From the NCBI RefSeq assembly GCF_024502345.1, contig NZ_JALDNN010000001.1: a stretch of DNA of 64,000 bases. One strand, 5' to 3'. Below, in pieces: positions 15,967 to 16,215 of the stretch. The first letter of the stretch is position 1. The number at the start of each line of letters is the position of its first letter. A program made the translations under genes and the position numbers. The stretch is from Escherichia coli. Lineage in GTDB: Bacteria; Pseudomonadota; Gammaproteobacteria; Enterobacterales; Enterobacteriaceae. The notes under the pieces are model-generated. The model had not been told where the DNA came from, ran no database searches, and saw only the letters and a program-made list of their open reading frames with translations.

Positions 15967-16199
15967 TCTGTAAATATTATTTAGCTGTAGTAATCACTCG
16001 CCGTAATTATTACGGCTAAATAAACATCAGTATCGCTTAATAATATTTGTTCTTTTGTGCGGCTTAGCGTTTGGAAATTATTGACGCAATTTATGAATTC
16101 TATTTTTTCTTACACGATTCAGCTAATGAGTCTTTATTTTCCCCCCACCCAATTGTCACCATAATGATAATTATTTGTTAAACAATTGTTTTATTCCAG

Positions 16200-16215
16200 A
16201 TTGGTTATACCAATT
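16200..16215 (+). promoter_or_regulatory. PdhR-box-like palindrome ATTGGTTATACCAATT in the cyoA control region
   Basis: Perfect ATTGGT-N3-ACCAAT dyad about 210 bp upstream of cyoA; PdhR repression of cyoABCDE is established. Confidence 0.4.

Follow-up and report, generated by a model that had tools for sequence, protein, structure and literature searches.

Why should the short spacer between ampG and cyoA in Escherichia coli hold so many perfect palindromes? A reading of the sequence alone had noted a nested dyad just past ampG and two further dyads nearer cyoA, and had taken all of them to be probable operator sites of the cyo promoter. The question is examined here in a window of 64,000 nucleotides of E. 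coli DNA, where ampG (14491-15966, + strand), which encodes a muropeptide permease, lies upstream of cyoA (16427-17374, + strand), the start of the regulated operon that encodes cytochrome bo oxidase. The spacer between them is 460 bp long and has 36% GC.

The region 15900-16450 is found in 5424 of 5426 complete E. coli genomes. It is 100% identical to the region in E. coli USDA-ARS-USMARC-49610 and 96.2% identical to that in a K-12 derivative. Within the species the spacer is highly polymorphic; just 21% of the genomes are at least 99% identical over 551 nt. At 16141-16150, K-12 has CTCATCACCC, but a run of C, CCCCCCACCC, stands there in this lineage. The regulator sites and the hairpin discussed below stay fixed despite this polymorphism. 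For comparison between genera, one genome was taken per species, giving 80 Enterobacterales cyoA loci; ampG lies upstream of cyoA in almost all of them.

The cyo promoter itself is a sigma-70-like element at 16349-16377 on the + strand, with a −35 of TTTACA, 17 bp, and a −10 of TAAAAT (a 10/12 match in a promoter scan). It is nearly invariant between genera (24 other Enterobacteriaceae loci). Its position agrees with the offsets of two ArcA sites from the cyo start, −38 to −7 and −231 to −189, that were published by Park et al. 2013 (PMC3798270, Table S6). Together, these would put the start of cyo transcription at about 16385. Positions convert to K-12 coordinates (U00096.2) as 467262 minus the window coordinate from 16104 on, anchored on the ArcA site; upstream of a 1-nt indel (window positions below 16104) the conversion gives one less.

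The palindromes are real. By string match, each was found where it had been placed, and the gene context that had been given for them is correct. Closest to ampG are the two halves of an outer repeat, TATTTAGC (15978-15985) and GCTAAATA (16015-16022), and an inner palindrome CCGTAAT-T-ATTACGG (CCGTAATTATTACGG, 16001-16015), which extends to GCCGTAATTATTACGGC (GCCGTAAT-T-ATTACGGC, 16000-16016). Further on come AAACAATTGTTT (16180-16191) and ATTGGTTATACCAATT (16200-16215).

Short dyads arise, of course, by chance in AT-rich DNA, and single ones are weak evidence of anything. Of dinucleotide shuffles of the spacer, 16.5% contain a perfect palindrome of 12 bp, 16.1% have a 6+3+6 dyad, and 5.9% have an arm of 8 bp. 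The cluster is another matter. When perfect inverted repeats with arms of at least 6 and a spacer of at most 5 are counted over the 460 bp, seven matches at five distinct sites are found, against 1.1 ± 1.26 in 1000 shuffles, and only 0.2% of these reach seven. Likewise, a longer inverted repeat reported by a repeat finder near ampG, with 18 of 21 arm positions complementary and 5 nt between the arms, was equalled in none of 300 shuffles. On sequence statistics alone, only the cluster and this long repeat go beyond chance. The view that the dyads are functionless products of an AT-rich spacer can point to the frequency of lone palindromes in shuffles, and to the symmetry of AAACAATTGTTT, which is indeed the accident of a single-nucleotide polymorphism (SNP). 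Against it stand the statistics just given, the phylogenetic conservation of all three loci, and the experimental documentation of two of them. Conservation and published binding data already contradict this view, and we give it almost no weight.

If not chance, then what? On balance, we lean towards a reading in which the interval holds three unrelated things: a known PdhR operator, a known distal site for ArcA-P, and a stem-loop in the transcribed 3′ UTR of ampG. Thus, the expectation that the dyads are operators holds for two of the three, one being a documented PdhR box and one lying inside a documented ArcA site, but not for the dyad nearest ampG. The broader proposition, that all of them map onto already documented operators, is likewise true of two; the third matches no documented operator that was found.

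PdhR is a repressor of the GntR family that is released from DNA by pyruvate. The dyad ATTGGTTATACCAATT had been described as PdhR-like, and this proved apt: a PdhR box of cyoA is on record at this very site (PMC7660256, Table 1). There, Anzai et al. 2020 report AATTGGTataACCAATg at K-12 position 451054, between cyoA and ampG, with a gSELEX peak and a 13/14 match, give the PdhR consensus as AATTGGTnnnACCAATT, and cite earlier gSELEX work in which cyoABCDE was a PdhR target (PMC7660256). The box in the window, gATTGGTtatACCAATT (16199-16215), is the reverse complement of the published sequence except at the outermost base. Compared with the operator of cyoABCDE in K-12, a GntR-family site of the form (A)ATTGGTnnnACCAAT(T), the 15-bp core is identical and keeps its place with respect to cyoA; the one difference is in the outermost flanking base (G in the window, C in K-12). 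Binding of PdhR to the identical K-12 core comes from gSELEX-chip (PMC7660256).

Other sequence evidence agrees. The PdhR palindrome ATTGGTnnnACCAAT, in which GGTnnnACC is essential, is matched exactly (15/15) at 16200-16214, and the PdhR box is the sole match to ATTGGTNNNACCAAT in the 64-kb window, where 0.14 would be expected. It is approximately 80-100% conserved in 24 other Enterobacteriaceae loci. By this identity of sequence, the known PdhR operator of cyoABCDE lies at 16199-16215. In the window and in K-12 alike, some 170-185 bp separate the box from the downstream transcription start, a long distance for a simple repressor.

The dyad AAACAATTGTTT has a different origin. Park et al. 2013 found three regions upstream of cyo by ArcA ChIP-seq, of which cyoA3 was the strongest, enriched 18-20x in K-12 (PMC3798270). 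Within it they predicted a site of four direct repeats, TTGTCACTCTAATGATAATTATTTGTTAAATAATTGTTTTATT, at K-12 451066-451108, with per-repeat scores of 0.6, 7.2, 12.7, and 6.1 bits (PMC3798270, Tables S1-S4). The equivalent in the window is at 16154-16196 on the + strand, about −231 to −189 from the cyo start. The two 43-bp segments correspond, and both have four repeats spaced by 11 bp, but that of the window carries three substitutions. Inside it, TGTTAaacaatTGTTT shows at least two TGTTA-like direct repeats 11 bp apart, centre to centre. The dyad falls at the junction of the third repeat (TTTGTTAAAc; TTTGTTAAA-) with the fourth (AATTGTTTTA).

The perfection of this palindrome comes from one of the three substitutions, a T>C change at 16183. 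The sequence-only reading was therefore right to call the 12 bp a perfect palindrome in this lineage, but K-12, another lineage, and most E. coli have AAATAATTGTTT instead. Of 5426 genomes, 1118 contain a 30-mer with the palindromic C allele and 3632 contain one with the T allele of K-12, the two 30-mers having been checked by alignment to each other. In 24 other Enterobacteriaceae loci, the repeat cores TGTTAA and TTGT are approximately 90-100% conserved, while the dyad is conserved asymmetrically: its right half is kept and its left half is not. Conservation thus tracks the repeat cores and not the dyad, and the C allele is in the minority; this, in turn, means that the dyad symmetry is incidental. 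By its sequence, the segment 16154-16196 is the distal cyo site already known for ArcA-P. The dyad had been placed correctly in an operator, since it lies within a documented ArcA site (PMC3798270, Table S4), but it results from the abutting of two direct repeats. A palindromic operator as such was rejected, as the half-sites are not symmetrically conserved and the perfect allele is confined to those 1118 of 5426 genomes.

In the cyo locus of strain EC529, a chicken-meat isolate (L004, 2780-3848), a copy of ISApl1, an IS30-family element, is inserted in the third ArcA repeat between TTTGTT and AAA, corresponding to window positions 16177-16179. This copy parts the distal ArcA repeats from the fourth repeat, the PdhR box, and the cyo promoter.

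Operators for PdhR and ArcA are textbook regulation of an aerobic terminal oxidase, and both were already documented. What they add that is new is only the lesson that a SNP within a direct-repeat site can by accident produce a “perfect palindrome.”

This leaves the dyad next to ampG. It had been described as nested, one repeat enclosing another. The strings are present, but they are better described as a single imperfect inverted repeat, with the inner palindrome lying off-centre in the loop and the 3′ arm. On the + strand this is a hairpin of 47 nt (15977-16023; arms 15977-15997 and 16003-16023; loop CTCGC) that starts 11 nt past the ampG stop (15966). Read as RNA of the + strand, two of the three mismatches in the arms become G.U pairs, giving a contiguous stem of 18 bp and two apical pairs. 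The fold has an energy of −22.6 kcal/mol (z −3.06), and none of 200 shuffles was as stable. Folded as a local hairpin, the inner palindrome (16000-16016) yields just −9.0 kcal/mol, where the long stem yields −20.7.

Within E. coli, the hairpin is single-copy (median of one place per genome) and well kept. The 61 nt around it are at least 99% identical in 4986 of 5424 genomes (92%), compared with 1137 for the whole 551-nt region. Rare variants of the hairpin itself do occur. In elppa4, the U.G pair 15986/16014 has become C-G, as in other genera, and the A-U pair 15983/16017 is broken; in EC12, one A is deleted from the 5′ arm.

Across genera, a homologous hairpin lies directly past the ampG stop in 20-21 of the sampled Enterobacteriaceae loci. 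Besides E. coli, these include Citrobacter (4), Salmonella, Enterobacter asburiae, Superficieibacter (2), Klebsiella (2), Leclercia, Trabulsiella, Kluyvera (2), Pluralibacter, Pseudocitrobacter, and several other Enterobacteriaceae. The core reads CGTTGTAATyAC, then a variable 5-nt loop, then GTAATTATAACG, and its arms of 10-12 bp are approximately 80-100% conserved in sequence. The outer stem behaves differently: its sequence varies between genera, yet its pairing is kept. The 5′ and 3′ sides are UUAUUUAGC and GCUAAAUAA in E. coli, GUUAUUCGC and GUGAAUGAC in Trabulsiella, and GCGAGUCC and GGGACUCGC in Pseudocitrobacter.

The palindrome CCGTAATTATTACGG, in contrast, is absent from the 19 other genera in the alignment. 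These genera read CGTAATTATAACGG, where the 3′ arm is not self-complementary. In E. coli, a two-sided change from U-A to A-U at alignment columns 17 and 39 gave rise to the palindrome, and the inner perfect palindrome is thus a species-specific accident. The same change disposes of a long-range pairing of the 3′ arm with CGTTATAACG (16247-16256), which was tried and rejected; the compensatory substitution of E. coli has its partner in the 5′ arm, not there.

How strong is the evidence that the pairing is selected? In an ungapped alignment of 20 sequences, 78.3% of hairpin cells are paired, against 69.9 ± 1.3 after shuffling, and the covariation score is 0.239 against 0.108; for both, none of 500 shuffles was as high. 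In a slid control, in which partners are moved by 1-3 columns, at most 52% are paired, against 78%. Two-sided changes occur at 12 of 21 pairs. The strand can also be told. A central wobble, G18.U38, is retained in 18 of 20 sequences; cells that would be G.U on the + strand outnumber those that would be A.C by 40:19 (21:9 without two fixed positions); and in 16 of 20 loci the more stable fold is that of the + strand, with the near-loop columns 23/33 as a place where pairing would occur only on the − strand. Thus, compensatory changes and G.U wobbles on the transcribed strand, the pattern expected of a conserved structured RNA, indicate a folded RNA rather than an operator.

The first reading had concluded the opposite, arguing from the 1-nt centre of CCGTAATTATTACGG that this was more likely a protein-binding site. 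That argument is not supported, because the palindrome on which it rests is found in E. coli only, while the enclosing hairpin is conserved, with compensatory changes and + strand G.U pairs. A dimeric transcription factor acting on cyo or ampG might bind half-sites CGTTRTAATnAC across a variable 5-bp spacer. Such a site would explain why the core arms are approximately 80-100% conserved about a variable centre, like the neighbouring transcription factor sites; many regulator sites crowd the region upstream of cyo; CGTTATAACG, a related perfect palindrome at 16247-16256, is conserved; and the 3′-end tables of Adams et al. 2021 show no mRNA end at the hairpin. But outside the core the arms change sequence and keep pairing, the E. 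coli core itself has a two-sided compensatory change, and the mismatches are mostly G.U on the + strand. The hairpin, moreover, directly follows the ampG stop and precedes the cyo start by about 360-408 bp, and no published ArcA or PdhR peak falls on it (PMC3798270, PMC7660256). With its pairs covarying, no binder found in those data, and no relevant paper returned by a literature search for the literal hairpin sequences, an operator seems improbable here.

Specific regulators fare no better. The HprR/CusR box is ATTACAAnnTTGTAAT. The arms of the hairpin do contain TTGTAAT and ATTATAA, but in swapped order and at a spacing of 11 nt, and this candidate was rejected. The likelier HprR-like dyad is presumably TTACAgtaaTGTAA, at the −35 element (16350-16363). 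IHF and Fur sites were set aside as poor consensus matches by eye.

An Rfam scan of 15800-16500 gave no family above its gathering threshold; the sole match, to MIR9555 at 21.2 against 119 bits, is spurious. A covariance model built from the hairpin alignment recovered no further copy, either in the window or among the 80 loci. Repeated elements of the REP, ERIC, MITE, or BIME type are therefore rejected. Like the repeated extragenic palindromes REP and BIME, the hairpin lies in an intergenic 3′ region and its palindrome is imperfect; unlike them, it is single-copy, specific to one locus, and AT-rich rather than GC-rich.

What, then, might the hairpin do? Its position 11 nt past the stop, its strand bias, and its covariation point to an RNA structure in the 3′ UTR of yajG-ampG. 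Most likely, it would be a stem-loop at the 3′ end of the yajG-ampG mRNA, acting as the equivalent of a terminator or as a barrier to exonucleases. It would mark or protect that end.

It is not a canonical intrinsic terminator, although it is a stable stem-loop that follows, as such terminators do, directly on the final gene of an operon. Its long, AU-rich stem has only about 5 G-C pairs and is followed not by a U-tract but by ACAUCAGU. A scan that asks for at least 5 U in the 8 nt directly 3′ of a stem with at least 3 G-C pairs found no terminators in the region. This candidate was therefore rejected. The hairpin could still be a weak terminator that lacks a U-tract. A more likely route would be termination by Rho further downstream, in unstructured RNA that is rich in C and poor in G, after which 3′→5′ exonucleases would trim back to the stem, where the hairpin would stop them. 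By either route, the hairpin would limit read-through into the tightly ArcA-repressed cyo promoter.

The downstream sequence is consistent with this. RNA from 16024 to 16130 is less structured than its shuffles (z +1.36), and GC skew is −0.43 to −0.47 (C>G) over 16100-16300, a rut-like composition. This is the unstructured, C-rich and G-poor RNA expected where a protective hairpin serves a Rho-dependent terminator. Protective 3′ stem-loops on Rho-terminated transcripts are a model reportedly put forward by Dar and Sorek in 2018. The hairpin resembles such stem-loops in being stable, in lacking a U-tract, and in standing just past the stop before unstructured RNA with more C than G; it differs in its unusually conserved core and in that the tables of Adams et al. 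2021 gave neither a mapped 3′ end nor bicyclomycin sensitivity at this site.

The start of the spacer is unusually structured in other genera too. Across 75 Enterobacterales loci, the first 100 nt past ampG fold with a mean z of −3.4 in genera that bear the hairpin and −2.3 in the others, against −0.9 and −0.2 for an internal control segment of the same loci. Some genera without this hairpin have a canonical terminator or a GC-rich hairpin in the same place. Taking stricter and looser scans together, canonical terminators occur in 2 of 20 hairpin-bearing loci and in 17 of 55 others; these counts weakly support a positional equivalence.

Several observations count against a 3′-end element. The stem is AU-rich at its base, and the strand bias is moderate. 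The two condition lists of Term-seq ends in Adams et al. 2021 give no 3′ end between one internal to cyoA and one internal to ampG, and none of the tables examined has an entry closer than some 40 nt to the base of the hairpin; these tables are thresholded, and ampG is weakly expressed. Supplements to the TERMITe and SMRT-Cappable-seq papers have no entry for ampG or cyoA. Adams et al. 2021 do report, within the ampG reading frame, an abundant sRNA, “ampG int,” with a 3′ end at 452393 in their coordinates, detected on northern blots and joined to CyaR in Hfq chimeras. That end corresponds to about position 15653 of the window, some 310 nt upstream of the ampG stop.

Further, the core is conserved in primary sequence beyond the need of a generic protective hairpin, and this leaves room for recognition of a specific sequence. 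ProQ, for example, binds hairpins in 3′ UTRs. The hairpin might accordingly be a cleavage site for RNase III or a docking site of the ProQ type that sets the stability of ampG mRNA. The nearly continuous stem of about 20 bp, which approaches the length of an RNase III substrate, would suit such an element, as would the strong conservation of primary sequence with its wobble in 18 of 20, the 92% of E. coli genomes that are at least 99% identical, and a hairpin without a U-tract. The element would, though, be one with no Rfam family and no processing-derived 3′ end in the tables of Adams et al. 2021, and its replacement by unrelated hairpins in some genera suggests a generic structural role. We regard it as unlikely.

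A more general form of the same idea is equally doubtful in our estimate. Here, the hairpin would be an undescribed, sequence-specific cis-element of the Enterobacteriaceae, with the core CGUUGUAAUyAC/GUAAUUAUAACG and an invariant G.U, that is bound by an RNA-binding protein, RNase III, or a DNA factor, controls the fate of ampG mRNA, and insulates the cyo promoter.

The core might, lastly, owe its conservation to the − strand, where CGTTATAATTAC holds a perfect −10 hexamer, TATAAT, in most aligned genera, and could direct an RNA antisense to the 3′ end of ampG. E. coli, though, reads TAATAAT, and neither a −35 nor a TG extension is conserved, as the columns 3′ of the hairpin are unconserved. 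A promoter scan reported no such promoter there, and an antisense promoter would leave the pairing and covariation without explanation. It is very improbable.

Returning to the stem-loop at the end of the ampG message, what is new is one unannotated hairpin, conserved in many genera, where the ampG transcription unit gives way to that of cyo. It belongs to a known class and is of an unremarkable kind, useful for annotation and unsurprising to the specialist. Should it set the 3′ end of ampG, it would help explain how a promoter that is repressed 65-fold by ArcA is shielded from upstream transcription, and would illustrate cleanly how a hairpin lacking a U-tract can stand in for a terminator.

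The spacer holds other conserved blocks. ATTTGTTCTTTTGTGCGG (16044-16062) and TTTGGAAATTATTGA (16070-16084) are 80-100% conserved in 24 Enterobacteriaceae loci; by eye, the first resembles, on the − strand, a marbox (GCACAAAAGAACAAAT). On the − strand at 16110-16123, within a block approximately 100% conserved between genera, GCTGAATCGTGTAA agrees with the Cra consensus RSTGAAWCSNTHHW at 13 of 14 positions. Matches to this consensus in the window are not above chance, with 11 found and 13.5 expected. Regulation of cyo by Cra is mentioned in PMC5888115; the papers on CRP and Cra give no coordinates for a cyoA site.

Closer to the promoter, at 16247-16256, is a perfect 10-bp palindrome, CGTTATAACG, which the sequence-only reading had missed and which is approximately 100% conserved between genera. 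It lies near the ArcA ChIP-seq peak “cyoA2” (K-12 450990-451010, about 16252-16272 in the window), for which Park et al. 2013 found no ArcA box (PMC3798270). Beyond it, TTTTGCAACA occurs as a direct repeat in two copies, 16261-16270 and 16294-16303, 33 bp apart. The second copy falls within a 7+4+7 dyad, ATATGTTTTGCAACATAT (16289-16306), that is followed by TGTGAC; this copy and TGTGACC are conserved, and the region may be a site for CRP or another activator.
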